Source: Sphyrna mokarran (taxonomy: Eukaryota). From it: DNA of 64,000 bases. The stretch spans positions 30,566,001 through 30,630,000 of the forward strand of contig JAGIQG010000009.1 in the NCBI GenBank assembly GCA_024679065.1. Reading direction: 5' to 3'. This document shows, one piece after another, positions 2,460 through 62,754 of the stretch. Within the stretch, counting starts at the first letter, position 1; the number at the start of each line of letters is the position of its first letter. Below the pieces are notes generated by a model that saw only the letters and a list, made by a program, of their open reading frames with translations, searched no databases and was not told the DNA's origin. The translations under genes and the position numbers were made by a program.

Positions 2460-3600
2460 TGTCATGTATGCATATGATATATGGGGTTTGAGATATGGGT
2501 CAGGTGATTCCTGGCGTTTGCTACAAAGAAATCTGTTGGACTTTAACGTGGTGTTGTGAGATCTTTTACTTTTTTTGCTCTCCCCATTGTGGGACCCTGT
2601 TGGGCAGTCTTAGACCTGACTGTGAATGAATGCACACCTTCAATAAACAACTCCGTTATTGAAGTATTCAAGCTGACTTCATGATTTTTTACGTCCCTTA
2701 GACCATGAGAACATATATAATAACAAGGTGATAGAATCATAGAACCCTACCGTTCAGAAAGAGGCCAATTGGCCCATCGAGTCTGCATCTATCACAATCC
2801 CACCCAGGCCTTACCCCCATATCTGTACATATTTATCTGCTAATCCCTCTAACCTACTCATTTCAGAACACTAAACAGCAATTTTAACATGACCAATCAA
2901 CCTAACACGCGCATCTTCGGATTGTGGGAGGAGACCAGAGCACCGAGAGGAAACCCATGCAGATACAAGGAGAATGTGCAAACTCCACATAGACAGTGAC
3001 CCATGCTGAGATAGAACCTTAGGTCCCTGGAGCTGTGAAGCAGCAGTACTAACCACTGTGCTACCATGCTGCCCTGTCTGGTTTATGGTAGTTTACACAT
3101 TCTGCTGGCATTCTATTGTAGTAAAAGGGGAGAAGATCAAGGATTGGCCTGAGACTTTGAAGAATGGCGCTGGAAAAAGAACCCACAGCTTGGTAACCTC
3201 GTAAAAAACTGGTAGGAGTGTTCCAACCGCGATACTTCAGTCTGAACAATCAGTTCACGGAAAGGTAGAATTTGCCTGGAAGCTGGCCAAAAACATCACA
3301 GGAAGAGTGCACCAAGGGGACTATGGTTGCAGGCAAATTATTGGCGATTACAGAAGGATGCCAAGGATGCTCAGGGGGGAGGAGACTTCAGGCCCCACGC
3401 ATTTGGCGTGAAAGCTTCCTGCTGGCAGAAAATGTCAGCCATACTCATTGTCATAGACCCTTTTGATGAAGAGACAAAGAGCTGGATACCTCTCACAGAG
3501 CACTTCAGCACTTATCTGGTGGCAAATAGTACGGCTGAGAACTTGGTTGCACTTATCTTCTTGAGCACCAAAGGGAGCAAAACCTTTGCTGTTCTGAGGC
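2460..3600 (+). mobile_element. Ty3/Gypsy (Mag-like) LTR and gag N-terminal remnant, interrupted by a SINE
   Basis: TGTCA...AATAAA...TAACA at about 2460-2724. From 3432: MSAILIVIDPFDEETKSW...EHFSTYLVAN...IFLSTKGSKTFAVLR, matching the Mag-clade gag start (PFD..E.W..Y.ER...Y..AN). Confidence 0.55.
2731..3075 (-). mobile_element. HE1-like V-SINE
   Basis: Minus strand gggcagcatggtagcacagtggttagtactgctgcttcacagc head, V-domain and (TTCTATG)n tail. Confidence 0.9.
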
Positions 3601-4302: not shown

Positions 4303-4603
4303 GCTGCAACTCAATGGTTAGCACTGCTGCCTCACAGCACCCGGGATCTGACTTCAATTCTGGCCTCGGGTCACTATCTGTGTGGAATCATCACATTCTC
4401 CTGTGTTTGTGCGTGTTTCCTCCAGGTGCTCTGGTTTCCTCATGTGCTCCAAAGATGTGCAGGTTAAGTTGATTGACCATGTACAATTATCCTTTAATGT
4501 CAGGGAGATTATGGGAATAGGACTCGAATGGGATTGTGGTCAGTACAGACTTGATGGGCCAAATGGCTTCTTTCTGCATTGTAGGGATTCTATGAATCTA
4601 TGA
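4303..4603 (+). mobile_element. HE1-like V-SINE
   Basis: ggttagcactgctgcctcacagcaccc head, V-domain, tail gtagggattctatgaatctatg. Confidence 0.88.
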
Positions 4604-4879: not shown

Positions 4880-6115
4880 AATTAGGAGCAGGTTAGAATT
4901 TGCTCCCTTGAATCTTCTCCACCATTCAATAGGATCATGGTTGATCTGATTTTCAGCTCAACATTACATTCAGCCCATCCCAATAACCTTTCACTCTCTT
5001 CACTTCTGCCTTAGATGTATTCGTTCACACTGCCTTCATTGCTCTCCAGTGAAGAGACTTTCAAAGGTTCACAATCCTCAGAGAGAAAAAAATTGTCTCA
5101 TCACTGTTTTAAATAAGAGATCTTTTATCTTTAAATTGTGGCCCTTGGTTCAAGTCTCTCCTATAAGGGGAAACATTAATTGGAGCATCTAACCTGTCAA
5201 GTCTCCTCACAATCTTATGTATTTCAAAAAATCATTCTCATTTTTCCAAACTTCAATGGATACAGGCCCCGACTATCCAACCTTTCTTCATAAGATAACC
5301 CAAACCCCAAACCCAGGGATCAGTTGGTTGAACAACTGCTTCTAATACATTCATGTCCTTTCTTAAACAAAGAGAAGTACACACAGCACTCCAAATATGG
5401 TCTCATCAATGTCCTGTACAGCAAAACATCCCTACTTCTAAATCCATTCTCCTTACAATAAGCAACAACGTTCAATTTGGCTTCCTAATTTTGCTGCACC
5501 TGCGTACTAACTTTTCCTGATTCACATACCAGAATGCCGCTGAACCTCAAATTTCTGCAATCTCACTTCATTTAAATAATATGCTGCTTTTCTATTTTGC
5601 CTGCCCAAGTAGTCAGGTTCACATTTTGCCACATAATATTGATATTTTTATATAGCATCTTATAAATTTATGCCCACTCACTTCATCTATCTATACCCAT
5701 TTACCCTAATATCCTCTTCACAACTTACTTTCCTACCTATCTTTGTGTCGTTGGAAAATTTAGCAACCATACCTTCATCTAAGTCATTGATATATATTGC
5801 ACATAGTTGAGGACGCAATACTAATTTCTGTGACACATCACACATCATATCTTGCTAACCTAAAAACAATCCTGTTTCCTGTTTGCTAGTTAACCCTTGA
5901 TCCATACTAATAATTTACTCTTACACTATAAGCTCTTATTTTGTGTAGTATCCTTTGATGTGGCACTATGTCAAGTAAGTGCCTCCTGAAAATCTAAATA
6001 CAGCACAACCTCAGGTTCCTCTTTGTTATTTATTACTTGCTCAAAAATCTCCAATAAATCAGTCAAACATATTTCCCTTTCGCAAAACCACCTTGACTGT
6101 GCCTGATTGCATTGA
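4880..6115 (-). mobile_element. CR1 LINE RT/3' fragment, degenerate
   Basis: Minus strand: CLTDLLEIFEQV...VLYLDFQEA (ORF 5971..6165), remnants of KF.DDTK and RPHLE.C, and the CR1 3' UTR. Confidence 0.85.
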
Positions 6116-6159
6116 TCTTTGGCATGGCCCCACAAAGAAGACAGATCGAGAAGATAAGT

Positions 6160-6308
6160 GCTCATGGGCTCCAGAGCAATTTACAAATCAGATCCAAAAC
6201 TCACCTGACGAAGGGGCAGAGCCCCAAAAGCTTGTGGCATTTGCTACCAAATGAATCTGTTGGACTTTAACAATTTTTTTCTCTCTGAAAGTTGTGAGAC
6301 TTCTTACT
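6160..6308 (+). mobile_element. Penelope pseudo-LTR fragment with inactivated hammerhead
   Basis: TCAC-CTGACGA-AGGGGC-AGA-GCCCC-AAAA-GC-TT-GTG at 6201-6236 (GAAA has become AAAA), then ctgttggactttaa...gttgtgagacttcttact. Confidence 0.7.
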
Positions 6309-6309
6309 T

Positions 6310-7480
6310 TGTGGCAGAAGGCAGAGAGTGATGGTCACAGACTGTTTTTGTGACTGGAAGCTTGTGTCAGGTAGTGTATTGCAGGTGCTGAGTCCCTTGC
6401 TGTTCGTGGTGTACATTAATGATCTGGATGTGAACATGGGAGATATTACCACTATGATGTGTGATAAATAGCATGGGGGCAAGCCCTAAATTACAGGATG
6501 ATATAGAAAGGCTGGTCAGATGGCAGAACAATAGTAAATGAAATTTAACTCTGAAAAATGTGAGCTGATGTATTTTGGAAAAACTAACAACCATGCAAAT
6601 ATACAATGAATGGTAAAATGCTAGGAAGCACAGAGAACGAGAGGGACCTTGGAAATGTATGTCCAGAGATCCCTGAATGCAGCAGGACAGGGTAGATAAG
6701 GTGATAAGAAGACTTGTGAAGTACTTGCCTTTATTAGCATGGTATAGAATATAAGGGCAGAGAGGTTATGATGGACCTGTATAAAATGCTCGTTAAGTCA
6801 CAGTGATGGAATTATGTATAGTTCTGGTCATCACGCTTTAGAAAGGATGTGATTGCTCTAGGGATGGTGCAGAGGAAATTCACCAGGATGTTGCTCGACA
6901 TATTTCAACAATGAAGAGAGGCTGGATAGGCTGGTACTGTTTTCCTTAGAGCAAAGAAGACTGATGAAGGGACATGATTGAGGTGGACAAAATTATGAGA
7001 GACATGGGCCGGAATTCTTCAGCCATTCATGCCGCACCAAGCTGCTAGTGTGGACAGAGAACTTGATGCTCAGGCAAATCCCTATAAACTGTAGCGGAAC
7101 CAGAGAATCCGGCTGGTGTGAATGGCTGAAGAATTCCAGCTATGGATAGGGTAGATAGAAAGGAACATTTCCCCAAAATAAAGGGATCAATAGTGAGGGG
7201 GGCATAGATTTAAGGCAAAGGACAGGAGATTAAAAAAAGGTTTGAGGAAAATCTTTTTCACCCAGAGAGTAGTGGGAATCTAAAAACCACTGCTTGAAAG
7301 GATGGAAGAGGCAGGAACCCTCACAACATCTAAGAAGCATTTATATGAGTACTTGAAATATCATAGCATAAAAGGCTATGGAGCAAGTGCTGGAAAATGG
7401 GATAATAATAAATAAGTGCTTGATGGCTGGTGTAGACACGGGCCAAATGATTTCATTTTGTGTTACAAAACTCTATGAAA
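6310..7480 (+). mobile_element. CR1 LINE RT/3' fragment, degenerate, containing a MITE
   Basis: VL.PLLFVVYINDLD, MKFNSEKCE, QRKFTRML and FFTQRVVGI remnants. Confidence 0.85.
7007..7141. mobile_element. Harbinger-type MITE
   Basis: Terminal inverted repeats gccggaattcttcagccattca / tgaatggctgaagaattccagc. It interrupts the CR1 sequence at gagacat|...|atggataggg. Confidence 0.8.
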
Positions 7481-7487
7481 TGCTCTA

Positions 7488-8340
7488 CGGCCTTTAATGC
7501 ACCCCTCAGCATGTAGTCCTGGACTGTGGAATGTGCCAGTCTGTCACACTTTGCACGAAAAGACTCAGAAGTTTCAGGCAGACCAAAGAGTATCTTTCAT
7601 CGAGTTGATGATTCTCTAGCTAAAGCTGATGTTTGTCTCAGTGGGCGTCCTTCAGAACAGCCCTTAGAGCACACAGTCCTGCATCACAGAATTGCTTAGG
7701 ATGAACCTTAGCATTTCATCACTTTCCAGATCGGCTTTGCAAAAGCACATTCCACAAGGAGGTGTGTCAGTGATCCCTCCCCCGCCTCAAGGGCAATGTG
7801 TGGATACGTGTGACTTGCAGTGTATTGGAAGGATCTTATGAGTAGAGCCTTTCTCACCACCAATCAAACTATGCTTTGCTGCTGGTTTGAAAGTTTTGGA
7901 GATGAGATATTCTGCCAAATGATGATGAAAGTCTGTTCAGGGAATCATGCGACAGGATCCACCATCTCCTTTTCCTGCAGGACCTTGAGGAAATTATGTG
8001 CAGAGCACCACCTGATGGATTTGTGGTCGAAGGTGTTTCTCTACATATCTTTTTCTACAAGGGAAAGGGAAGTGATACAGCAGAGTTAAATTACTTTGGT
8101 GTCATGACAATCTTGCCAGCCAACTCCACTTGGTCTGAAGGTCACAAATGGTCTATGTTTACAGGGATATGATGTACAAACCTCGGGATAAAGGAGGAAA
8201 AGCTATGCTAACATCATTCTTTGCCTGATGGCCATCTTATGTGTCATTAAACTGATATTAGACTCTTGCTAACAAACACTGAGTGTTGAGTTCTACCTGT
8301 CCCTGGTGTTATAAAAGATGGGCATGGCTATATTGCCATG
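7488..8340 (-). mobile_element. L1/Tx1-clade LINE ORF2 C-terminal fragment with inverted 5' segment
   Basis: Minus 8060-7488: NTFDHKSIR...LQEKEMVDPV..FPEQT...IWQNISSP...HLLVECAFAK.IW...IINSMKDTLWSA...LAHSTVQDYMLR. Plus 8090-8340: RDMMYKP.DKGGK...FYLSLVL..MG. Confidence 0.8.
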
Positions 8341-8791
8341 AAATATTTATATGTAAAGATATATTTTTATAGATATAGAATCTGAAAAACACTACATTTC
8401 CAATTATTATAACAGTGAAGAACGATGAAATTTACATTTTCTCCAGAGATCTGATGTATTTGAGGTGCTTCAGTTCAGTAATGTGAATATTCCGTTTATT
8501 TTAATATTTTCAGTACAGCGAGCAAAATTCTTTACAAACTATCTACATTGGTCATGTTGCACTCTACAGGACTTCAGTAAAGTTACACACAGTTAGAATT
8601 AAGTACACAGTCAGAGGGATTTTACCTGATTACTAGCCTCTCGGTGTACATTGGTTGAAAGGGCTTACGTAGTGGCATTTTCCAATGTTGCCTTTGTGAC
8701 GATTGCCCCAATTTTGAATGCATCCCTCAGCACATAATCCTAGACTTTAGAATGTACCAGTCTGCAGTGCTATGCTATGCTGCCACAGAAT

Positions 8792-8992
8792 TAAAACAAT
8801 ACTTCATTCTTAAAGTTATAAAGTCAAAACTCAGAATGGACTGGGCAAACCCAACTCCATCCCCTTACTTGTTCAAAAACCTAAATTCAAATTCCAAGTG
8901 AATCCAAATCATGGTCTCTTCAAGAGATACAAACAAGGTCCAAGTTGATAAGATAAGGCATTGCACCTCATCTTGGGCTTGATCTGATGATA
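8792..8992 (-). mobile_element. U2 snRNA-derived retroposon, 5'-truncated copy 1
   Basis: Direct repeat of 9009-9210. Minus strand ggtttttgaacaag..ggggatggagttgggtttgcccagtccattc aligns to U2 GGATTTTTGGAGCAGGGAGATGGAATAGGAGCTTGCTCCGTCCACTC. Confidence 0.65.
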
Positions 8993-9008
8993 TTAGCTAT
9001 CACGGAAT

Positions 9009-9242
9009 TTTTCTTTTTTTTTTATTGCATCCTTAAAGTTACAAAGCCAATGCTCAGAGTAGACCTGGCAAACCCAAATCCATTCCTTATTTGCTTCAAA
9101 AACAAAATTTAAATTCCAATTGGATCCCATTCATGGGTCCCACAAGGGAGACAAACGAGATCCAAGCTGACAAGATAAGGCATTGCACCTCATCTTTGGC
9201 CTGATCTGGTGCTTGATCTGAGCCAAAAAGCCAATAAGTCTT
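9009..9242 (-). mobile_element. U2 snRNA-derived retroposon (SINEU-like), near full-length copy 2 with poly(A) tail
   Basis: 9212-9238 matches the U2 5' end at 23/27 nt. The body is collinear with U2 to about nt 158, has an A-rich tail, and is flanked by TTAGCTAYCACGGAAT at 8993-9008 and 9243-9258. Confidence 0.75.
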
Positions 9243-9272
9243 TTAGCTACCACGGAATGCTCCAAGTAGTTT

Positions 9273-9797
9273 AGAACATAGAACATAGAACACTACAGCA
9301 CAAACAGGCCCTTCGGCCCGCAAGTTGTGCCAATCATATCAGTACCTACCAGGCCATAGAACTATCTGTAACTCCCAATCCCATTAAATCCCATGTACTC
9401 ATCCAGAAATCTCTTAAAAGACCCCAGCGAGTTCGCCTCTATCACCACTGACGGCAGCCGATTCCATTCACTCACCACCCTCTGAGTGAAAAACTTACCT
9501 CTAACATCTCCTCTGTATTTGCCCCCAGCACCTTAAACCTGTGTCCTCTAGTAGCGACCATTTCAGCCCTGGGAAATAGCCTCCGAGAATCCACTCTATC
9601 TATTCCTCTCAACATCTTATAAACCTCTATCAGGTCGCCTCTCAACTTTCATCTCTCCAGGGAAAAGAGACGAAGCTCTCTCAACCTATCTTCATAAGGC
9701 ATGCCCCCTAATCCAGGCAACATCCTTGTAAATCTCCTCTGCACCGTCTCAATAGCTTCCACATCCTTCCTATAGTGAGGCGACCAGAACTGCACAT
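9273..9797 (-). mobile_element. CR1/HER1 LINE 3' end
   Basis: Minus strand VQFWSPHYRKDVEAIETVQRRFTRML...TRGHRFKV...FFTQRVV; tail (TTCTATG)n after ggccgaagggcctg. Confidence 0.92.
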
Positions 9798-12880: not shown

Positions 12881-13183
12881 GGGCAGCACAGTAGCACAGT
12901 GGTTAGCATTGCTTTTTCACAATCCAGGGACATGGGTTCAATTCCTGGCTTTGTTCACTGTCTATGTGAAGTTTGCACATTCTCCTCGTATCTGTGTGGG
13001 TTTCCTCTTACAATCCAAAAATGTACCGGTTAGGTTGATTTGCCATGCTAAAGTTGCCCCTTAGTGTCCTGAGATGTGTAGGTTAGAGGGATTAGTGGGT
13101 CGATATGGGGATAGGGTCTGTGTGGGATTGTCGTCAGTGCCAATCCTGAATGGCCTCTTTCTGCACTGTAGGGATTCTATGAA
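12881..13183 (+). mobile_element. HE1-like V-SINE
   Basis: gggcagcacagtagcacagtggttagc head, V-domain, gtagggattctatg tail. Confidence 0.88.
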
Positions 13184-13465: not shown

Positions 13466-13760
13466 ACATAGAACGTTACAGCACAGAACAGGCCCTTCGG
13501 CCTTCGATGTTGTGCCGACCAAAATAAAAAGCAATGCCCCTCCAAACTAAACCATTCCCTTCTCTTCCATATACTTATCAATTAACCTCTTAAACGCCAC
13601 CAAACTTGGTGCATCTACAACAGCTGCAGGCAGGGCATTCCACTCACTAATCACTCTTTGAGTAAAGAACCTACCTCTGATATCCGTCCTATAACTCATA
13701 CCCCTTAATTTAAAGCTGTGTCCCCTCGTGCTAGCTTTCTCCATCCTAGGAAAAAGGCTA
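13466..13760 (-). mobile_element. Young CR1/HER1 3' end
   Basis: ORF 13547..13744 (TRGHSFKLRG..RGRFFTQRV..WNALP); near-identical to 41230-41528. Confidence 0.92.
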
Positions 13761-14804
13761 TGTCAGAAGTAGGGAAGATGCTAGAACCTGTGAAAAGAAT
13801 GTGCTAAGTGGACATTTGGATAATAATGGTCTGATTGAACATAGCTAATGAGGATTCATGAATGGGAAATCATGCTTGACTAACCTGTTGGAGGTTTTTT
13901 GAGGATGTTACTAACAAAATTAATAAAGGGGAGTCAGTAGTCATTGTGTACGTTAGACTTTCAATAAAGTAAAGCATGTGTCTTGTTTTTATAATGCAGT
14001 ACAATTGACACCATATATTGTGAATTAGCTTTATTAATAACACATTTTAATAATGTGAATAGACAACTGTAAGCCATTTGCAGCCTTGTTACAACTTTCT
14101 CTAGCATGTGCTTTCTGACCTTCGACCCAATAGGTAAGGTGACCACATGTAATAGTGTACTGTATTGTACATATGGAGTTCACAGCCACAAGCAATTATT
14201 GTCATGACACCCAGGATCGAGGATAAAATACCGGTACGGATTAGAGGCTGATTAACAGGTAGAAAACAGGGTAGGAAGAAAGGAGTCATTTTCACATTGG
14301 CAGACTATAATGAGTGGAGTACTGCAAGGGTGAGGACTCGGAGCCCTGCACAATGTGTGTAAATGATTTGGATGTGGAGACCAAATGTAATATTTCTGAC
14401 TTATTGGATGATACAAAGTTGGGTGGGAATGTACGTTGTGAGGAAGATGCAAAGTGGATTCAGGGGGATTTGGACAAACTCGGTTGTTGTGCTGCTGGAG
14501 CACATCAGAGGTGCACTCCACCTCTATATTTAAACGTTTTAATATTCACCGCTGGAAGTTTATTTCTGTGACAGACTCTAAGGAACTTTCAAAGTCAGGA
14601 TTAAGGAGTTTGAAGCACAGGAATTACATTTCCCAGCTTATCTCAGGAATTTCTTGTACATGCTGCAGAGACCGGGCTGTGATTGCACAGTTACTGTTTC
14701 GTAATTCTTCAGACTGAGACGCGACTCTGCACACAGGCACAAAGCAAAAGGAAGTGAAACAATGTGGAGTTACAGGTCAGGTGACCTGAATATCTTTTTT
14801 TTGT

Positions 14805-15195: not shown

Positions 15196-15492
15196 TCGTG
15201 GTAGCATAGCGGTTAGCCTCAAAGCACCAGTTTGACCCCGTTTTAATTCCCGGTTTGGTCACTATCTGTGTGGAGTTTGCACATTCTCCCTGTGTCTGTG
15301 TGGGTTTCCTCCGGGTGCTCCAGTTTCCTCCCACAGTACAAAAATGTGCAGGTTAGGTTGATTGGCCATGCTTAGTGTCAGGGGGGTTAGTAAGGTAGAT
15401 ATGTGGGAATACAGAGATAGGGCCTGGGTGGGATTATGTTCATTGCATAACTGATGGGCCAAATGGCCTCCTCCTGTACTGTAGGGATTCTA
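15196..15492 (+). mobile_element. HE1-like V-SINE
   Basis: V-domain ctgtgtggagtttgcacattctccctgtgtctgtgtgggtttcctccgggtgctcc, tail gtagggattcta. Confidence 0.9.
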
Positions 15493-16207
15493 AGTTAAAG
15501 GAAGAGCTGCATGAAGCAGACTTGAAGCAAAGGGGGCTTGAAAGAAGCAGTGGGAATCTGGTGGCAACATATTGATCACCTTCGGAAGCAGCGGTGTCTG
15601 CTCGATAAGGACAAGGATCTGACAGTGTGGTTGGAAGGCAAAGTTTGAGTGTACATGGAGGTCCACAGAAAAGGAATTGCAGAAGGTGAGATCGAAACCC
15701 TGGAGGTGAACAACAGTGCAAAGCCTACTTTCTGTTTCCTTTGCAGCTGCATTGTACATTAGTCATTGCTGATTTATTATTTACGTAATTTGTCCCTTTT
15801 TTTGCCCCGATGCCCAGCTCTCAAACTTGTGAAGCAGCAGGTTAACAACTTATAAAATAAAATGGTCTAAAATCCACCAGCCAATTCAGTATTCACCACC
15901 AGTGTGAAGGGAGAAAGGCCTCAGTCATAACTCAGACATAACAAAGCCCTTAGCAAGTCAAGAGAGAAATATACAGCCGAGAGAGAAAAGCTGCGGAGGT
16001 TGGTTTCAATTTATTCATTGGAGAGACTGAAACTTCTCGAGTGTCTTCCTGAACAAGCAACTGCTTCTGAAATTTATTTCACTTAGTTTGACCTAAATTC
16101 ATTATGGCAGCCTTAATCGCAATAATCAGTGGGTAAATTATATTTTCCTGCATTTTGTTGGGAATCTTAAAAAGACTAAGAACTCCATGATTTGATTTCA
16201 AGACTTA

Positions 16208-17331: not shown

Positions 17332-18935
17332 TGTTACCCTGTCAGATACTTGCCCAGTTATCTAAATGAGATCTGACCAAGTATAAGCTCAGGATATTAA
17401 TGCTTGTGTATTGTTAATAGCTGTACCCATGCACGATGGGGAGGGAAGAGAGGGGGCTAGAATCAAACTTTCAAAACTACCTGATAACGATACAACAACC
17501 TCTATGGTCTTTAAGCAGTGATCCTTCACGAACAAGGTAACTGGACCAGAATTTAAAGGTGAGAACTTTGGCTAACCGGGAGAGAGGACATACATCCCTG
17601 GGGCTGGAAGTTGGCAGGGTGAGCTGGGGAGTCGTTAGGAGCAGACTTGTGGTGTCGCATTGCAAATCCTTTAATTGTAAATAGTTCCTCCTTGCTGAAT
17701 AAAACTTATTGTTTTATATTTGCCATACTGAGTTGTCTGAGTTACCACACTGGTAACAAGGGCAAACCAGATTATTTGTTGAAAGCCCCCACTGCAGAGT
17801 TAGAGAGGGGAAAGAGAAGGATCACTCAAAGTTTGAAGAAAAAAGGGTACCTTCTCCATTGCTGTTATTTGGGAAAATAGTTTCATTTGATCCTGTAGTT
17901 GAGAGTTCAGGGCAGTACATTGAGAGAGTATAATGTTTCTGTAACAAAATAAATAACTGAGGTGAAACATAAAATGATACTGATCACAATCTGCAGCCCA
18001 CAGATTTATAATCTGGTGAGGAATTTGACATCACCCAAAGCACCAGACACAAAAACCTTCAACCAGTTGGTCAATTTAATTAAGGATCACTATAACCCTT
18101 GACCATCCATTATCATGCAGAGGTACAAATTCCACTCTGCTGTTTGGGGTTTAGGAAAGATGGTCTCTGGATTCACAACCAGGCTTTGAATGGCTGGCTG
18201 GTGCACTGCAAGTTCAGGCCTTCATTAGGAATCATGTTCAGTTTGTGGCATCAGCAATCTCAACATCCAAAAGAAACTGCCGAAACTAACAGTTCACCGG
18301 AAAAAGTACGAGAGCATGTGCAAGCTGCAAGGTCTACAGAGTGAGGGCATGTGCCAGTTGCAAAGTGTGCAGAGTGACGGCAAGTGCAAGCTGCAAGGTG
18401 TGCAGAGTGAGGATGTGTGCAAGCTGCAAGGTGTGCAGAGTGAGGACGTGTGCAAGCTGCAAAGTGTGCAGGGTGAGGGTGTGTGCAAGCTGCAAAGTGT
18501 GCAGAGTGAGGGCGTGTGCAAGCTGCAAGGTGTGCAGAGTGAGGGCGTGTGCAAGCTGCAAGGTGTGCAGAGTGAGGGCGTGTGCAAGCTGCAAGGTGTG
18601 CAGAGTGAGGGTGTGTGCAAGCTGCAAAGTGTGCAGAGTGAGGGTGTGTGCAAGCTGCAAAGTGTGCAGAGTGAGGGCGTGTGCAGGCTGCAAGGTGTGC
18701 AGAGTGAAGGCGTGTGCAAGCTGCAAGGTGTGCAGAGTGAGGGTGTGTGCAAGCTGCAAGGTGTGCAGGATGAGCTGAACGAGTCAGACTGGGAAATGAC
18801 TGCTCTTGGAGGCAGCACTGAATGAAGGTGCAGTGGAGCCCAAGAACAGAGAATAATCATTCAACACCAGGGTCCGAAGCATGTTTTCTGATGTGGGGCA
18901 GATCACAACCCTTGTGAATAAGCTGCGGTGGAACC
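17332..18935 (+). mobile_element. Ty3/Gypsy Mag-clade LTR retrotransposon 5' part (LTR, PBS, decayed gag)
   Basis: LTR TGTTA(17332)...AATAAA(17698)...CCACA(17749). PBS-like TGGTAACAAG at 17751 (consistent with CpG-decayed TGGCGACGAG). gag: FGKIVSFDP...QYIERV...IYNLVRNLTSPKAPDTKTFNQLVNLIKDHYNP..SIIMQRYKFH, with a knuckle remnant CF*CGADH near 18885. Confidence 0.8.
18316..18770 (+). repeat. 33-bp minisatellite, about 14 units
   Basis: Unit GTGTGCAAGCTGCAA(G/A)GTGTGCAGAGTGAGGG(C/T); it accounts for the four overlapping repetitive ORFs. Confidence 0.97.
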
Positions 18936-20142: not shown

Positions 20143-20483
20143 TTAGAATCAGTATGGTGCAAAAGGAGGCCATTTGGCCCATCGAGTCTGTACTGACCAC
20201 AGTCCCACCCAGCACCTATCCCCATAATCCCAAGTATTTAACCTAGCTACTTCCCCTACAGTGAGTGGCAATTTCATATGGCCAATCCACCTAAGTCAAA
20301 CATCTTTGGACGGTGGAAGGAAATTGGAGCACCCAGAGCGTACCTACGCAGACACAAGGAGAATATGCAAACTCTGCACAGAGAATGAACCAAGCCGGAA
20401 TTGAACCCGGGTCCCTGGCACTGTGAGGCAGCAGTGCTAACCACTATGCAGCCTTAAGGAGATTAGGGCAGCAGGGTGGCACA
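20143..20483 (-). mobile_element. HE1-like V-SINE
   Basis: Minus strand gtggttagcactgctgcctcacagtgccagggacccgggttcaattcc. Confidence 0.9.
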
Positions 20484-23569: not shown

Positions 23570-25720
23570 TATGAAATAGTAGTAGGGATATGCAATTTGG
23601 TTCCTTGAGCCTATGCCACCATTCAAAATGACCATGGCTGACCTGATTATTATCTCAACTCCACTTTCCTGTATAACCTCTAAAACCCTCAATTCCTTTG
23701 TGGATTAAATATCTCCCTAGCTCGGCCTTGACTATATTCAATGATCCAGCCTCCACTGCGATCAGGAATAAAAGAATTCTAAGATTAACAAACCCTCAGG
23801 CAAGAAAAAAAGTTTATTTATTAGTTACATATAGGCTTACATTAACACTGCAATGAAGTTACTGTGAAAATTCCCTAATTGCCACGCTTGTTTGGATACA
23901 CAGAGTGAGAATTTAGCATGGCCAATCAACCTAATCTACACATTTTGGACTCTGGGAGGAAACTGGTGCACCTGGAGGAAACCCACGCAGATGCAGCAAG
24001 ATCATGCAAACTCTATACAGACAGTGACCCAAGCCAGGAATCGAACCTGAATCCCTGGTGCTGTGAGACAGCAGTGCTAACTGTTGTGCCATTAAGCTTT
24101 TCTCTATCTTGATTTGGAAGACAACTTTATTCTGACTCAGTGCTCCTTAGTTCTTGATTTTCTCCCTCGAGTGGAAACATCCACATATGCATCTTCCCCA
24201 TCAAGCACCTCTCTAAACCTAATCTGTTTTAGTAATGTCACTTCTAATTCCTCTTAATTCCAATGCCTGTAAGCCCAACCTTCTCAACATTTCCCTATAA
24301 GATAACCTTTCCATCTCAGGAATCACCTAGCAAGCAAACCTTCCTTACTTAACTGTATATATTGGTTCTATTATTTATTGTGTGGTTTCACCAACACCCA
24401 GTGAACTTTTATAAAATTTACTGTTTCAACCAGAAATCACCTAGCAAGCAAACCTTCCTTTCTTAAATAACAAAATGAAAAACATATACAATTAAATGTG
24501 GTTTCATGAACAGCCTGCAGAGTTGTTTTAAGGCTACTATTTTTATATTTCATCCTCCTTACAATAATGTTCAACATTCCGTTTGCCTTTGTAAATAATT
24601 GGACTTGCCTGCCAACCTCTCTTGTGTCTTTCCTTTGCATTCTGCAGTCTTTCTTAGTTGAAATAATCTTCTGCTTTTCTATTTTTCCAGCCAAAGGAGA
24701 TAATCTCATATTTTCCCACCTTATATCCCAACAGACAATTTTTTGGCCATTCATTTAATCTAGCCAAATCCTTTTGCAAGCACTTTGAGTGGAATTTTCC
24801 CATCCCCTGTCCCAGGAATCATAATCGTTGGGGGGCAATGGAATTGTAAAGGTCTTTTGGCCTTAGATGGGAGTTTCTGGCCTTGGGGTGAGCATGGTTG
24901 GACAATCCCACTCTTTGTGTTCTCTTCACAACTTGCTTTCCTTTGCACTGTTGGCAAATTTGGCTACAGTACTCTCCTTTCATCCATGACATTGATAAAG
25001 ATCGTAAATATTGAGGCCCCATCATTGATCTCTGTGGCATCCCAGCAGTTGAAATTTGCCAAACTAAAAATGACCCATTTATCATGGCTCCTTGATTCCT
25101 GTTAATGAGCTAACGCTCTGTCTATGCCAATATATTTCCCCCAAGACTACGAGCTCTTATCCAGTGCCATAAATAGTAATATGACATACTACCGAATACC
25201 TTTTGTAAATCTGAATACACAACATCTACTGGTTCCTTTTTTATTTACCCTGCTGGTTACTTCCTCAAAAGATTCATAAAACACACTTTCTTTTTCCTGA
25301 AATTATGTTGATTCTTTTTGATTTCATGGATTTTTCTAAATGTACTGCTACTGCTTCCTTGAAAATGGATTCTAGCATTTTTCCTTGATAGATGTTAGGC
25401 TAAATGCCTATAGTTTCCTCTTTTCTTGAATTGGGGTATTTCTTTTGTGGTTTTCTAATACCTGGGGCCTTCTAGAACCATGGAACTTCGGATGATAACA
25501 ACAAATGTAACTATTATCTCTGCAGCCATCTCTTTTGGATGTAGGCTATTTGGTCTAGGGGACTTTTAGGGATGCTTTTAGCGTCCTGTAATGCAATACA
25601 TTTTCAAATTCTTCACCATTCTCTTGTTTCCCATTATGAATTCCCTGGTCTCATCCTCACAGGAACCAGTGTTCATTTGAGCAAAACTCCTTTTTACATA
25701 GCTGAATAAGCTCTTATTGT
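23570..25720 (-). mobile_element. CR1 LINE, degenerate, with nested V-SINE (23810-24092) and MITE (24789-24912)
   Basis: Remnants of VVYSDLQKVF, GMPQRS..GP, KANGML..I.R and the CR1 3' UTR. Confidence 0.75.
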
Positions 25721-35039: not shown

Positions 35040-35575
35040 ACAAAGAACAAAGAACAAAGAACAAAACAGCATGGGAAACAGGCCCTTCGGCCCAACGAGC
35101 CCGTGTCGCCACCTCGATGTTCCCACTTCTACATGCGACCCCTGTCCATGTTTATAGATCTATGGATTAAAAACCAAATTTGAGACAATTTTGGGAGAAT
35201 TTGTTTTGCCAATTAGCCTAAGAGCACATCTTTGGGATGTGGGAGGAAACCGGAGCTCCCGGAGAAAACCCACGCAAGCACAGGGAGAATGCGCAAACTC
35301 CCACAGCCACAGGCCCAGATCTGTACAGCACAGCTATAGTCACTGCGCTGTCGTGTTGCCCATCAGATGGTCCAGGTCAAGCATACACTAACGATGTGAA
35401 GCAGTAGGATATTCTCGAAAAAGGTCCAAGAGCAGTCCTCTCGTGACCCATCGCGTGTATGCCCCTCGTTAGACAACAAGGTGGACCAAAGCACCTGTAG
35501 GATAAAAACAAGTACATCAATATCATCATCTATTTACATACTTCCCAGGAACTCCCAAGGCTCATGATCCATATT
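35040..35575 (-). mobile_element. Composite 3' UTR of the CR1: unique segment, degenerate V-SINE, (TTCTTTG)n tail
   Basis: Same order and sequence as 62755-63276. Confidence 0.85.
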
Positions 35576-37732
35576 TTAAATCAGTTTTCTATACCCCTCC
35601 ATTCCCATTCTGTTCATGTGCCCGTCTAAGTATTTCTTAAATAACTCCAGAGTACCTGCCTCCACCACTTTACTTGGCAGTGCATTCCATACCCCCACCA
35701 CCCTCTGTGTGAAAAAACTCCCTCTAGCATCCAAATTATACCTTACCCCACTCACCCTAAGCCCGTGACCCCTCGTGCTATTTGAGTCCATCCTAGGAAA
35801 AAGCTTAACCCTGTTTACTCTATCTATCCCCTTCAAAATCTTGTACACCTCTATCAGATCTCCTCTAAGTCTACGTCTTCCTAAGGAAAACAGTCCCAAT
35901 TTGCCTAATCTCTCCTCGTAACTCAGACCTTCCATACCAGGCAGCATCCCGGTAAACCTCCTCTGCACTCTCTCCAGAGTCTCCACGTCCTTCCGGTAGT
36001 AAGGCGACCAGAACTGGACACAGTATTCCAAATGAGGTCTAACCAGCGATTTATACAACTGCAACATTAAAGGCCAGCTCTTGTACTCTATACCCCTTCC
36101 TATAAAGGCTAGCATACCATATGCTTTCTTCAGAACCTTCTCCACCTGCTCTGCCACCTTCAGAGACTTGTTCACCTGTACCCCCAGGTCCCTCTGCGTT
36201 TCTATACTCTTAATAGGTCTACTCTTTATCATATACCTCCCCTCTACATTCTTTCTCCCGAAATGCATCACCTCACATTTATCAGGATTGAATTCCATCT
36301 GCCATCTGTCTGCCCAAGCTACCGGCCTATCTATGTCCTGCTGCATCGCCTGACAATGCTCCTCACTATCCGCAAGTCCAGCCATCTTTGTATCGTCTGC
36401 AAACTTGCTGATCACGCCACTTACTCCCTCTTCCAAGTCATTTATATATATTACAAATAGAAGAGGTCCCAGTACCGAGCCCTGCGGCACACCACTAGTG
36501 ACCAACCTCCAGCTAAAGAAACACCCTTCCACTATTACTCTCTTTCTCCTATTACCAAGCCAGTTAGTTATCCATCTAGCTACCTGTCCTTGTATCCCAT
36601 TTGCCTTGACCTTCTCGACTAACCTCCCATGAGGGACTTTGTCAAACGCCTTACTAAAATTCATATAGACGACATCAACGGCTCGCCCTTCGTCCACCGT
36701 TTTTGTCACCTCCTCAAAAAATTCTACCAGATTTGTAAGGCACGACGTCCCCTTAACAAATCCATGCTGCGTATCCCTAATCAGATTGCAACGCTCTAAG
36801 TGCCTATACATCCTATCTCTAAGAATCACCTCCAACAGCTTCCCCACCACTGACGTCAAACTCACCGGCCTATAATTTCTGGGGTTATCCCTACCACCCT
36901 TTTTAAACAACAGTACAAGATTAGCTATTCTCCAGTCCTCTGGGACCTCACCTGTGTCCAAGGAAGAGTCAAAGATTTGCGTCACAGGCCCAGCAATTTC
37001 ACCTTGCACCTCTCTAAGCAGTCTGGGATAAATGCCATCAGGTCCTGGAGATTTATCAGTTTTAATGCTACCTAGAAGCTCTAACACTTCCTCCTTCGGT
37101 ATGGATATTTCCCTCAACTGGTCCACAGCTCCCTCAGAGACAGGAGCTGTCAACAAGCCCCTCTCCTTCGTGAATACCGACGCAAAGTATTCATTCAGGA
37201 TCTCCGCCATTTCCTCGGGCTCTAAGCACAGTTTCCCTCCTCTGTCCCTAAGAGGTCCGATTTTTCCTCTAACCACCCTTTTATTCCTAATATAGGAGTA
37301 AAAAGCCTTTGGGCTTTCCTTAATCCTATCCACCAAAATCATTTCATGCTCCCTTTTTGCCCTTCTAACTCCCTGTTTGAGCTTCCTCCTACTCTCTCTA
37401 TATTCCTTCAATGCTGTCTCGGTTCCCAGCTGCTTCGACCTATCATACGCTTCTCTTTTCTTCCTAACCAAGTCCTCAATATCCCTAGTAATCCACAGCT
37501 CTCTAATCCTACCTTTCCCATCTTTCCTCTTGGCTGGCACGTACTTATCTTGCAACATTTTCAGCATTCCCTTGAAAGAATCCCACATGCCTAGCGTGGA
37601 CTTACCCTCAAACAACCGTTCCCAATCAGTTTCCCTAAGTTCCTGCCTAATTCGACCATAGTTAGCCTTCCCCCAATTCAGCACCCTGCCCCTAGGGCAA
37701 CAAGCATCCTTTTCCACCTGTAGCTGTATCAT
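35576..37732 (-). CDS. CR1 LINE ORF2 (5'-truncated; RT domain and C-terminus, 718 aa open)
   Basis: KSPGPDGIYP, NYRPVSLTS, QHGF, YMNFSKAFDKVPH, GVPQGSVLGP, KFADD, VRPHLEYCVQFW. The endonuclease domain is missing. Confidence 0.95.
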   Translation of the reverse strand: MIQLQVEKDACCPRGRVLNWGKANYGRIRQELRETDWERLFEGKSTLGMWDSFKGMLKMLQDKYVPAKRKDGKGRIRELWITRDIEDLVRKKREAYDRSKQLGTETALKEYRESRRKLKQGVRRAKREHEMILVDRIKESPKAFYSYIRNKRVVRGKIGPLRDRGGKLCLEPEEMAEILNEYFASVFTKERGLLTAPVSEGAVDQLREISIPKEEVLELLGSIKTDKSPGPDGIYPRLLREVQGEIAGPVTQIFDSSLDTGEVPEDWRIANLVLLFKKGGRDNPRNYRPVSLTSVVGKLLEVILRDRMYRHLERCNLIRDTQHGFVKGTSCLTNLVEFFEEVTKTVDEGRAVDVVYMNFSKAFDKVPHGRLVEKVKANGIQGQVARWITNWLGNRRKRVIVEGCFFSWRLVTSGVPQGSVLGPLLFVIYINDLEEGVSGVISKFADDTKMAGLADSEEHCQAMQQDIDRPVAWADRWQMEFNPDKCEVMHFGRKNVEGRYMIKSRPIKSIETQRDLGVQVNKSLKVAEQVEKVLKKAYGMLAFIGRGIEYKSWPLMLQLYKSLVRPHLEYCVQFWSPYYRKDVETLERVQRRFTGMLPGMEGLSYEERLGKLGLFSLGRRRLRGDLIEVYKILKGIDRVNRVKLFPRMDSNSTRGHGLRVSGVRYNLDARGSFFTQRVVGVWNALPSKVVEAGTLELFKKYLDGHMNRMGMEGYRKLI

Positions 37733-38174
37733 CTGTAGCTATTTTCCATCATTAGCTGTAGTATTCCTAGCCTCTGAGCTGCTCTTGTAGCCACTGTGTT
37801 TATGTGGTGAGTCTAGTTGGGTTTCTAGTCAATGGTAATCCCAGGGTGTTGATAATGGGGGATTCAGTGATGGTAACATTATTGAATGTCAAGGAGCAGT
37901 CGTTAGAGTGTCTCTTATTGGCGATGGTGATTGCTTGGCATTTGTGTGGCACAAATGTTACTTTACTACTTGTCAGCCCAAGCCTGGACATTGTACAGAT
38001 CTTGTTACATTTGAACATGGACTGCTTCAATGTCTGAGGTGTCGCGAGTGAATACTGAGCAATCGTCGGCGAACTTCCCCACTTCTGACCTTATGATGGA
38101 GGAAAGGTCATTGATGAAGCAGCTGAAGATTGTTGGACCTAGGGCACAACTCTGAGGGACTCAGGCTAGTGTTC

Positions 38175-39034: not shown

Positions 39035-41580
39035 AGTATAAAGTGAAAAGTATTGTTTCTTGCATGCTGTACAGACAAAGCATAACATTTATAGAAAAGG
39101 AAATGTGAGAGTGCAGAAAGTAGTGTTACAATCATAGTTAAAGTGTAGAGAAAGATCAACTTAATGCAAGGTAGGTCCGTTCAGAGGTTTGACAGCAGCA
39201 GGGAAGAAGCTGTTCTTGAGTCAGTTGATGCTTGACCTCAAGCTTTTGTATCTTTTTCCTGATGGAAGAAGGTGGAAGAGAGAATGGGGTTGATGGTGTC
39301 CTTAATTATTCTGGTTGCTTTGCCGAGGCAGTAGAACGTGTAGACAGAGTCAATAGGTGGGAGGCTGGTTTGCATGATGAATTGGGCTACATTCACAACC
39401 TTTTATAGTTCCTTGCAGTCTTGGGCACAGCAGGAGCCATACCAAGCTGTGATACAACCTGAAAGAATTATTTCTATGGTGCAGTTGTAAAAGTTGGTGA
39501 GAGTCGTAACTGACATGCCAAATTTCCTTAGTCTTCTGAGAAAGTAGAGGCATTGGTAGGCTTTCTTAACTATAGTGTTGACATGGGGGGCCAGGATAGG
39601 TTGTTGGTGATCTGGATACCTGAAAGCTTAAAGCTCTCGACTCTTTCTACTTCATCCCCATTGATGTAGACAGGGTTATGTTCTCCTCTACGCTTTCTGA
39701 AGTCGATGACAATCTCCTTCATTTTGTTGACATTAAGGCAGAGATTATTGTCGCCGCATCAGTCCATCAGATTCTCTATCTCATTCCTATGCTCTGTCTT
39801 GTCATTGTTTGAGATCTGTCCCATTATGGTGGTATTTTCAACAAACTTGAAAATCGAATTAGAGGGGAATTTGGCCACACAGTCATAGGTGGATAAGGAG
39901 TACAAAAGAGGGCTGAGATCAGATCCTTGTGGGGTACTTTTGTTGAGGATGATTGTGGAGGAGGTGTTGTTGCCTATCCTTACTGATTGTGGTCCATGAG
40001 TTAGGAAGTTCTGGATCCAGTCGCAGAGGGAGATGCTGAGGCCCAGACCATAGAATTTGGAGATGAGTTTCATGGAAATAATGGTGTTGAAGGCTGAGCT
40101 GTAGTCAATAAATAGGAATCTGACATCGGTGTTTTTGTTATTTAGGTGTTCCAGGATTGAGATGGTGTATGCTGTGAACCTGATGCAGCGGTAGGCAAAC
40201 TGTAATGGGTCCAAGTAGTCAGGGAGGCTGTAATTGATTGGTGCTATGACTAGGCTTTCAAAGCACTTCATAATGATGGATGTCAGAGCCACCAGCTAAT
40301 AGTCATTAAAGCATGCTGCTTGGTTTTTCTTAGATACCAGGATGATGGACATCTTTTTAAACTCTGATTGTTGTAAAGAGAGGTTGAAAATATGTGCAAC
40401 TACTCCAGCCAGCTGATCTGTGCAGGATGTGAGTGCTTGTCTGGATACCCAATCAGGGCCAGTCATTTTCTGTGGTTGACCTTCCAGAAAAGTGCTCTGC
40501 AATGGTAACCCCAGATACAGGTTCATCCAGTGCTCCCTGGATGGAAGACATGCTCTTGTTGGCTTCTTGTTCAAAATGGGCGTAGAATGCATTGAGCTCA
40601 TCAGGGAGAGATGCATTGAATTCGGCGATTTTACATGCCTTCACCTTGTAACCTGTTATGTCTTGCAGACCTTACCGTAGTTGACAGGGGTCTGTATAAC
40701 TAACCTGGGACTCTAACTTAGTCCGGTACTGTCTTTCAGCATCTTTGATGGATCTCCTTAGATCATATCTGGCTTTCTTATACAGTTCAGAGTCACCTGA
40801 CTTGAAAGCCTCAGACCTGGACTTCAGCAAGCAGTGGATATCTGCTTGCTGAATCTCAATCCATCTCAATCCACTAGGCAGTCAAGTGGATAAAGTTGTT
40901 AAGAAGGCTTATGGAGTCTTAGCTTTTATTGGTAGGGGGATTGAATTTAGGAGCCGCAGCATCATGTTGCAGCTGTACAAAACTCTAGTGCGGCCGCACT
41001 TGGAGTATTGTGTGCAGTTCTGGTCGCCACATTATAAGAAAGATGTGGAGGCATTGGAGAGGGTACAGAGGAGGTTTACTAGGATGTTGCCTGGTATGGA
41101 GGGCAGGTCCTATGAAGAGAGGTTGAAGGATTTGAGGTTGTTTTCGTTAGAAAGGAGGCGGCTAAGGGGGATCTTATTGAAACATATAAGATAATTAGAG
41201 GTTTGGATAGGGTGGACAGTGATAGCCTTTTTCCTAGGATGGAGAAAGCTAGCACGAGGGGACACAGCTTTAAATTAAGGGGTATGAGTTATAGGACGGA
41301 TATCAGAGGTAGGTTCTTTACTCAAAGAGTGATTAGGGAGTGGAATGCCCTGCCTGCAGCTGTTGTAGATGCGCCAAGTTTGGTGGCGTTTAAGAGGTTA
41401 GTTGATAAGTATATGGATGAGAAGGGAATGGTTTAGTTAGGAGGGGCATTGCTTTTTATTTTGGTCGGCACAACATCGAAGGCCGAAGGGCCTGTTCTGT
41501 GCTGTATTGTTCTATGTTCTATGTTCTATCTCTGTTCATCCATAGTTTCCAGTTGGGGAACACATGGATTTGCTTCTTTG
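39035..41580 (-). mobile_element. Rex1/Babar LINE, 5'-truncated and decayed, split by CR1 at 40875-41528
   Basis: [91 protein letters not shown] lies beyond the CR1. Confidence 0.9.
40875..41528 (+). mobile_element. Young CR1/HER1 3' end
   Basis: ORFs 40886..41194 and 41203..41436 (one frameshift); tail (GTTCTAT)n. Confidence 0.95.
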
Positions 41581-60899: not shown

Positions 60900-62750
60900 T
60901 ACCCACTTAGTAAACTGCAACTTTCTTACTTTGTGCCGTCTACTGCTTCTTCTAGTGCTACCCCAGGGTGCACATCAGCTGTGATGCATGCCCTGTTGCC
61001 TGTGATGCCCTTGGCAGACATCCCTGGGTGACCAGGACTTGGAGGGCCCTGGCTGATTTGTGGATGGCACAGTGCCACCTGAGATGCCCAGATGTGAGGT
61101 AGGGGGAAATCAGAAGGTCTCAGGACATCTAGGATCTCTTGGGTGGAAGGTCCTGGCATGGACTCAAGCCCTTCCTCCTCCCTGGGGCTGCCCAGAGGCC
61201 CTGGCATGTGATGCCAGGATAGCTCGACTGAACTCCAGAAGCCCCAGCGTCACCAGGCTCTGCCAGTCCTGGAGGCCTAGATGTGTCTGCCCCATGATGT
61301 ATGATCTCTTGCCCTCTGAGACTGGACTAAGCTCTGGAGCCCTCCTGCTACAGCATTTTGTGAGGGAGCCAGACTCTGGAGCCCCTCAGCAGTAGCCCTT
61401 AGCTTGGGCTAGGTTATTGAGGTTCACTGTCACAGTCTGCTGTGTCTCCAGAATGTCAGCGAGAGTCCCAGCTATGGCCAGCAACGTCTCCAACATGCCA
61501 CCAATACCCATAACCATCGAGCTCTGCGCCTCCAGAACGCCGGAAACACACTCACCTATGGCTCATTGTGTCTCCAGGATGGTCTGGATCCTATTACCCA
61601 TGAGGACAGACCCCTGAGCCAGACTTTCTACTGCAGTCGCCACCCTTGCCATGTTGGCGTGGATCTCGTGCTTTGTCAGCACTACCTTCTACAACTCTAT
61701 TTGACTCCCCTAAACAGCCTTGCAGTCGAAGCATGGTTGCTGATAGCCCTTCCAGAACTCCCTAGGTTTTCCGATGCATCTCCTTCAGCCTTGGAAGGAA
61801 CACATCCAGAGATCCAGCAGCTGGCTTGGGACAGCTGAGCCCTGGCCTCTGGCAGATCTCCGGGTGCCCGAGTCCTCGGATGTGCCTGCCTCCACCCGAT
61901 GTGTATCAGTGTCTGTGATGTGCTCACCAGTTCGTAATCCAGAAGCCACAACACTAAAGGTACCACCATGATGATAATCTTTGTTTTGGTGCGTTATGTG
62001 ATACATGCCAGTGCTGCTTCAATGGTGCTGCCCTCGGAGGATTCCTCAGTGCCTCCCTCTGCGGTGTCATCCAGGGAGTGGTGGGTAGTTTTCTCCAGAG
62101 CAGCAGGGGGCGGCAGCAACATTCAAAGGGTTGGGTTCTTCTGGGTGCAGAGCTGAAAGAAAGAACATGTATTAGGAGAAGAGAGGCAAAACATTCTATG
62201 CAGCATTGCACTTACTTTGAGGGGGATCTAGGTTGAGGGTACGCTTCTGCTCACTTGCTTGCTAGATGCCAACCTGACTATTGATGAACAATTGAGAAGG
62301 CCCATCACCCCCTGCCAGCTCCATGGCATGCTCCTCGATGCTAGTCAGCTGCTACAGATCAGGCACACCCTAACCAGTCTGTGTTGCCTCCCATACATTG
62401 TGGTTATTCTTTTCCTGTGGGAACATAAGGTGGATAGCAAACATTAATATGTTGCAGTGTGTGGAGCGTAATGCATACCTGTGCTTCGGGCATTGCGCTG
62501 GCAGTTTCGGGGGAAGGCAGTCACCATTGATGGGTGAGGAGGAGGGGTTAGATTCTATTTCTGGGGGAGGGGTAACTTGTTGCATGCCCTTCAGGTGTTT
62601 AAACAGGATTTGAGATCTGTGCCAAGCAGATGTGGGGTTCCAAGCGGGATGCTTACTCACCCTTGCTGCTTGAAGAAGGTTGGACTTTTTTTTCCAAAAC
62701 TGCTGGCCAGAGCATGCTGTCAGGCTCCTGGCATTCACTACTTCTGCCAC
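60900..62750 (-). pseudogene. Harbinger second ORF (Myb/SANT, spliced) remnant
   Basis: EVAEVVNARSLT.CSGQQ.WKK.SNLLQAAR|gtgagt; next exon EKNNHN.WE..QTG*GVPDL; further exons delimited by tttcag and gtgag. Confidence 0.75.
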
Positions 62751-62754
62751 CTCA

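Follow-up and report, generated by a model that had tools for sequence, protein, structure and literature searches.

At positions 8792 to 9242 of the window analysed here (the whole stretch of 64,000 nucleotides from Sphyrna mokarran), two related short units lie head to tail on the minus strand, surrounded by copies of one short sequence. The locus raises the questions of which RNA the units descend from, and of which enzyme inserted both of them at a single target.

Copy 2 (9009-9242, minus strand, 234 nt) is full length and is supported by a U2 profile, a shuffle test and family depth. It comprises a U2 head, a 24-nt insertion, a U2 body that extends to nt ~158 and includes an insertion of ~18 nt, a short non-U2 end and an A-rich tail. 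Copy 1 (8792-8992, minus strand, 201 nt), supported by BLAST, the U2 profile and the shuffle test, is 5′-truncated: it is without U2 stem-loop I, has a few extra letters at its 5′ junction and finishes in an AT-rich end. The copies share 81% identity over 186 nt (BLAST E 1.7e-43) and differ from each other in the 5′ end and in the tail. The earlier note on this DNA had described two related units of ~200-230 bp, the second with an A-rich tail, and both statements hold. Its account of the locus as two units among three target copies also stands, but it overlooked a fourth target copy, the accompanying LINE fragments and the nature of the target. The units are non-coding, with no ORF of at least 120 aa within them, and copy 2, with its 3′ A tail, is shorter than 500 bp. 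No additional unit copy was detected by the U2 profile in the 64-kb window, where the next-best match had an E value of 0.2.

Relationship of the units to U2 snRNA

The U2 profile was built from five real U2 genes from public contigs, each of which scores 180-193 bits with the Rfam U2 model. Its search of the window (nhmmer) returned two matches, one to copy 2 (model positions 5-158, E 1.3e-4) and a weak one to copy 1 (model positions 99-143, E 0.076). The head of copy 2 is identical to U2 nt 5-31 at 23 of 27 positions, which upholds the U2 5′ end previously read from its minus strand, and 96 of the 139 columns aligned with U2 nt 21-162 are identical (about 69%). The alignment is continuous from nt 5 to 158, with insertions but no deletion, and the likeness stops near nt 158. 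The insertion behind the head, first put at ~23 nt, measures 24 nt and is made up of three degenerate motifs that repeat U2 nt ~21-32; a second insertion of ~18 nt, absent from the earlier description, precedes the Sm site.

With U2 nt 1-34 removed, copy 2 scored 39 and copy 1 scored 38, shuffle means being near 20 (sd 3), and the shuffles that equalled the score in four such tests numbered 0, 0, 0 and 1 per 2000. When 1020 tiles of the window were scanned with the same headless U2, the top three all came from the units, and the next tile scored 32. The likeness to U2 past nt 30, which the earlier note had supposed, is therefore significant without the head, as judged by the shuffle tests, and by profile it reaches nt 158. 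Its appeal to the Rfam U2 model succeeded as to rank but not as to score: among 4227 families U2 (RF00004) came first for copy 2, at 19.3 bits, far under the gathering score of 46. The E values of this match were 0.42 in 2 kb and 0.098 in 471 nt, the two units scored 19.3 and 11.7 bits, and an Rfam scan of the whole 64-kb window gave no match at gathering level. In the head the branch-point pairing sequence is truncated, in the body it is altered, and stem-loop IV has been replaced; with the pairing sequence incomplete, normal U2 function is unlikely. Judged from these sequence comparisons, both units are derivatives of U2 snRNA.

Copies of the family in four organisms

Contigs from four of 14 listed sequencing runs (X1-X4, representing four organisms) were aligned on positions 8400-9270 at 80% likeness, and 4983-6744 contigs per run aligned over the whole of this stretch. 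Summed contig depth, which is not a copy number and conveys an order of magnitude only (hundreds to thousands), was 8,335-60,030 in the copy 2 body bins of X1, or 485-3490x the depth of 17 for a contig identical to the locus, and ~780-17,000x the median depth of the listed pieces for the copy 2 body in X2-X4. Genuine U2 genes are too distant to contribute to the depth of the body bins. The high copy number anticipated in the earlier note is thus seen in all four organisms, with depths some hundreds to thousands of times that of single-copy sequence.

Where contigs (64-107 in each row) run beyond copy 1 on its 5′ side, they enter a U2 head; in the X4 row at 8987, 29 of 30 positions are those of U2 nt 4-33 (compared by eye), the agreement in such rows being only 0.48-0.59. 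Contigs that run beyond the 3′ end pass through an A-rich tail into mixed sequence (agreement 0.43-0.52). High depth, mixed flanks, the A-rich tail and the 29/30 U2 head together indicate a dispersed family. Its head is much nearer to U2 than its body, which suggests that the head was added later.

At 18 of the 21 unit sites among the 40 difference rows listed (of 373), one copy departs from the contig majority and the other has the majority letter. Departures that are not shared point to copies 1 and 2 as separate insertions from one master and not to a local duplication. Descent from a common master, and not from independent U2 retropseudogenes, had been proposed before and is sustained by the two insertions and the non-U2 end present in both copies. 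MAFFT gave 54 of 65 columns as shared departures from U2, a count made unreliable by the poorly aligned middle. Low depth in the bin 9240-9269 was considered as a sign that the target is not common elsewhere and was rejected as uninformative, because the head of copy 2 is diverged, alignments end near 9196 and only ~28 nt of target flank were covered. Scans for family motifs found none in metagenome contigs and none in viral contigs; one bacterial 20-mer was taken as a chance match.

The target and the neighbouring LINEs

Along the minus strand, a target copy comes first, followed by copy 2, a second target copy, copy 1, a third, LINE A and a fourth. The outermost (5′) target copy (9243-9258, minus strand) and the copy between both units (8993-9008, minus strand) agree at 15 of 16 positions. 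The third (8774-8791, minus strand) is at once the 3′ flank of copy 1 (13-nt core) and the 5′ flank of LINE A (18 nt); it matches 9246-9258 at 11/13, both mismatches being transitions, and 8327-8344 at 13/18, and the 16-mer at 8776 matches that at 9243 at 12/16. The 16-mers reported earlier around the units were thus recovered at 8993, 9243 and 8776. The fourth copy (8327-8344, minus strand; 13/18, transitions only) is the 3′ duplication of LINE A. It is the sole 18-mer on either strand of the window that matches 8774-8791 at at least 13/18 with transitions only, a criterion chosen after the match had been seen, and nine other 18-mers reach 13/18 when transversions are allowed. All four target copies are in frame with LINE ORF2, and the reading frame at 8327-8344 lends independent support to the fourth.

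The targets begin at one common base and have lengths of 16, about 13 and 18 nt; a single first nick followed by a second cut at varying positions would give this pattern. Their identity increases toward the 5′ insert, from 13/18 (LINE A) through 10-11/13 (copy 1) to 15/16 (copy 2), which, with numbers this small, fits an order that begins with LINE A and ends with copy 2. At 8999-9000, a single contig from X2 and another from X3 carry G and C, as the 8774-8791 copy does, which fits an ancestral state and is not proof of orthology. At this one locus, LINE A appears to have been inserted at the same nick as both U2 units, and three insertions at one nick point to a site-specific endonuclease. 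The Tx1/L1 enzyme that the earlier note had suggested as the mover gains local evidence from such a LINE sharing the nick.

LINE A (8345-8773, minus strand) is a 5′-truncated fragment of L1/Tx1 type, on the same strand as the U2 units, which retains ~32 codons from the end of ORF2 together with a 3′ UTR and ends in an AT-rich tail (tblastn with the relative P0001, aa 270-301 at 8766-8671, 66%, E 1.3e-7). It is moderately repeated in all four runs, and the depth of the units is far above its own. Among the 15 joints listed of 376, one X1 contig from another locus has a LINE 3′ UTR joined to a like-oriented unit (joint 9196 to 8407). In the same listing, ~180 nt of the LINE A 3′ UTR (8542-8723) are skipped in two contigs of X1 and one of X4, suggestive of a sister subfamily of the LINE whose UTR is shorter.

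The insertion target is itself ORF2 coding sequence, hit in antisense, of an older 5′-inverted LINE copy (LINE B). The main part of LINE B (7492-8067, minus strand) is a broken C-terminal zinc-binding region of ORF2 (P0001, 44%, E 6e-36), cut on its left side by another LINE. Its inverted 5′ part (8142-8344, plus strand), which contains the target, corresponds to ORF2 aa ~837-911 of the full-length relative P0197, with tblastn E values of 0.001-0.004 window-wide and 2e-6 to 6e-5 locally. It is resumed past the insertions at 9259-9271 (plus strand; A-P-S-S), where 7 of 8 residues equal P0001 aa 69-76 (local E 0.005). Across the target, the left piece ends A-I-L-P-stop-N, and the right piece, which takes in the plus strand of 9243-9258 in frame (L-P-R-N), reads L-P-R-N-A-P-S-S, the relative P0001 having L-S-R-N-A-P-S-S. 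Because in-frame ORF2 codons of a LINE make up the target, the weak likeness to U5 raised in the earlier note is not needed. In P0197 numbering, ORF2 aa ~837-915 of LINE B lie on the plus strand and aa 921 onward on the minus strand. Inversions of the 5′ end of the twin-priming kind are known for L1, and that of LINE B is of this type, in a Tx1-group element.

Six-frame translation revealed pieces of LINE ORF2 on the left; the one at 7690-8076 gave 61 protein matches (phmmer best E 4.3e-31), and a word-based search with the broken fragment gave none. Ten relatives were checked, the top five being from Heterodontus, Rhincodon (two), Rhinoraja and Leucoraja, which supports the shark-like host proposed in the earlier note. 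The relatives carry an endonuclease (PF03372), an RT (PF00078) and a zf-RVT domain (PF13966); the window fragment alone yields zf-RVT at E 0.082. The best solved-structure match is L1 ORF2p at E 7e-31, versus 4e-5 for R2, and the match to the Takifugu RT BAD04856.1, which we take to be possibly Keno, is 37%. Pfam searches of 12 whole frames gave only two weak, unrelated matches. From the domain layout and from unnamed or generically named relatives, the LINE would belong to the Tx1 group and may belong to Keno. In the whale shark, Tx1 L1-like repeats are present and a full LINE1 is not, according to the accessible part of one account (PMC8455134).

Beginning 13 nt past the target is an unrelated LINE 3′ fragment (9272-9797, minus strand; ~530 nt, 67-69% to other copies in the window). 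We take it to be of CR1 type; its strand is that of the unit array, and nothing significant was found for a continuation of LINE B past this insert at 9797. A weak plus-strand match at 61614-61712 (E 0.33), to ORF2 just upstream of the target codons, may be due to chance or to another decayed LINE piece. Elsewhere in the window, a 720-aa open frame with RT similarity (35576-37738, minus strand) is part of a CR1-type LINE, the stretches 35048-36316 and 62753-64000 are 87% identical, and a tandem repeat of ~33-nt units (18310-18774) is open in several frames. A repeat of 170-340 nt, which presumably resembles the shark tRNA SINE HE1, is present in many copies (1249-1419, 2737-3074, 4315-4592, 12881-13182, 15216-15493, 20143-20449, 23813-24081 and others). 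Two LINE 3′ fragments in opposite orientation, at 13466-13761 and 41222-41517, are 97.6% identical and form the youngest-looking repeat pair in the window.

Origin of the family and comparison with known elements

The reading that we favour, and regard as quite probable, is that of a non-autonomous retroposon descended from U2 and similar to SINEU, which a site-specific enzyme of the Tx1 group mobilises in trans. It is improbable that the units are instead processed pseudogenes, copied by the same LINE enzyme from a divergent U2-like snRNA gene, or a few such genes, still alive and equipped with an upstream promoter, and never themselves sources. The family does retain a near-perfect stem-loop I and an Sm-site-like run, beside which the majority letter at 9096 restores the U2 letter, and without Pol III boxes an outside promoter would be needed anyway; against such genes speak a body only about 69% identical to U2 over the aligned columns, the cut-off or altered branch-point pairing, the replaced stem-loop IV and an Rfam score of 19.3 against 46. 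Ordinary, independent U2 retropseudogenes that decayed in place have next to no probability. A-tailed U2 retrocopies with target duplications are known, in the accessible text of PMC4494074, but the two copies here have the same two insertions and the same non-U2 end, they are 81% alike when copy 2 is only about 69% like U2, and thousands of contigs, from four organisms, are at least 80% like the derived form. The shared insertions refute this explanation, unless the real U2 of the host has them.

The units adjoin, on its 5′ side, a LINE fragment of the same strand, which would also agree with a repeat from the 5′ UTR or 5′ head of an autonomous element of Keno/Tx1 kind, the array being one LINE with two subrepeats, and some Tx1-Mar families carry U1 or U2 heads (PMC4494074, accessible text). 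We consider this very unlikely, as LINE A begins ~32 codons before the ORF2 stop and so is without a 5′ UTR, every unit has its own tail and target duplication, the 3′ ends of the family lead into A-rich tails and mixed sequence with no one common continuation, and the depth of the units far exceeds that of the LINE piece. The A-rich tails, the mixed flanks and the truncation of the adjoining LINE inside ORF2 also dispose of the earlier note's reservation that the unit might be a LINE 5′ UTR subrepeat. Two head-to-tail units with a common 16-mer, and some contig joints that step back by one unit length, might suggest a single insertion duplicated locally or a short tandem satellite; this is scarcely credible, since departures from the majority are not common to the copies (18/21 listed sites), their 5′ ends and tails differ, and the flanks of other copies are mixed.

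Under the favoured reading of a SINEU-like retroposon, the body would be decayed U2: behind a near-intact head of nt 1-34 would come a short repeat of nt ~22-32 and then a return to U2 at nt ~21, continued to ~158 and interrupted by a further small duplication ahead of the Sm site. The unit would close with ~20 nt of non-U2 sequence and an A tail. The ORF2 protein of a Tx1-group LINE would bind the A-tailed RNA in trans, with recognition likely through the A tail, nick its preferred site and, by target-primed reverse transcription, make a DNA copy. Most likely LINE A owes its insertion to its own ORF2 protein, and hence that protein or a close relative probably served the U2 units. The site in ORF2 of the older LINE would have been struck three times on the antisense strand, by LINE A, then copy 1, then copy 2, with every later insert placed 5′ of the previous one, where the upstream nick context survives. 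Homology between the SINE tails and the LINE A tail seemed plausible on inspection but was not significant, with 191, 325, 1244 and 1055 of 2000 shuffles reaching the score in comparisons with this one decayed LINE tail.

No strict match to the Pol III A- and B-box consensus was found in the units, and both copies have internal T4-5 runs. Without Pol III boxes, source copies probably depend on a promoter outside the unit, the most plausible candidate being a Pol II promoter of U2 type that came with a fresh head; transcription is the least certain step. The head may have been added later through a template switch or through capture behind a U2 promoter. Keno and Utopia cut U2 at 38/39 (PMC4640811, accessible part); an origin of the head by insertion at the Keno site in a U2 gene was considered but is not borne out in detail, since the head stops at nt 34, with the body picking U2 up again from nt ~21.

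The accessible account of SINEU (Kojima 2015; PMC4494074) describes SINEU-3 of crocodilians as having 16-bp duplications, tandem copies sandwiching them and a target in common with Tx1-Mar, and states that no SINEU was found outside crocodilians. Compared with that description, the shark unit is like SINEU-3 in being nearly all U2 with a short non-U2 3′ end and poly(A), in having a 16-bp target duplication with tandem copies around it and no Pol III promoter, and in using a target inside another transposon, which at this one locus would also have served a Tx1-group LINE. SINEU-3, however, lost ~50 bp of U2 and consists of 32-bp and 83-bp pieces, whereas the shark unit keeps nt ~21-158 and has gained two duplications; the target of the shark unit is LINE ORF2, not Mariner-N4_AMi, and differs from the duplication quoted for SINEU-3 (PMC4494074). 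The published description, as far as accessible, thus sets the unit apart, and it is not a SINEU-3 member. With SINEU-1 and SINEU-2 it shares snRNA pieces repeatedly added or partly duplicated at the 5′ end, as well as the lack of a LINE-homologous 3′ tail (for SINEU-1, Kojima likewise found no LINE tail match), but it has neither the U1 parts nor the non-snRNA 3′ half seen there, and, unlike SINEU-1, SINEU-2 or SINEU-3, its host is a shark or ray, not a crocodilian (PMC4494074). The class features of SINEU that were tested are all present in the unit, namely a U1/U2 head, a length under 500 bp, poly(A), a shared derived structure, a target duplication and no Pol III promoter.

The layout of endonuclease, RT and zinc-binding domains in the relatives of the LINE and the repeated insertion at one nick recall Keno and Tx1-Mar (accessible parts of PMC4494074 and PMC4640811). 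Unlike Keno, which inserts in U2 genes before nt 39 (PMC4640811), the nick here lies in LINE ORF2, and the target resembles the Keno U2 site weakly, at 11/23 (rank 4 of 336) for one nick placement and 3/23 for the other. SacSINE1 and the CmiSINEs, which are elasmobranch and chimaera tRNA SINEs, resemble the unit in host group, shortness and abundance but are built with a tRNA head, a Deu or CORE domain and an L2 tail (PMC5499810); the accessible text of that paper has 0 mentions of snRNA, SINEU or Tx1. From a classical SINE with a tRNA, 5S or 7SL head, the unit differs in being without an internal Pol III promoter and in a tail not significantly like that of LINE A.

The literature searched, which includes the accessible parts of PMC4640811, PMC5499810, PMC5381603, PMC5786205 and PMC8455134, yielded no snRNA-derived SINE in cartilaginous fishes, and within it such U2-built elements had previously been described only from crocodilians. 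There is a modest chance, well below even, that Repbase or Dfam already holds an entry for the unit. Its origin is probably independent of that of crocodilian SINEU. A wider scenario is offered tentatively, being possible but doubtful: elasmobranchs may harbour an old, abundant and independent U2 retroposon whose partner, a Tx1-group LINE, mainly targets its own or a sister ORF2 in antisense, with trains of LINE and SINE knocking out other LINEs, and whose sources, on a captured U2 promoter, may still make a small RNA with an Sm site.

SINEU has so far counted as a peculiarity of crocodilians. Another vertebrate family, from a far older lineage and of a different build, would suggest that U2 together with a Tx1-group enzyme yields SINEs repeatedly. 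With a high copy number in several sequenced species, the transcription of a SINE that lacks an internal promoter, a question raised in the accessible text of Kojima (2015), becomes directly testable. A LINE that targets the ORF2 of its own kin would, if true, represent an unusual choice of target, and the family could inflate U2 gene counts in shark annotations.
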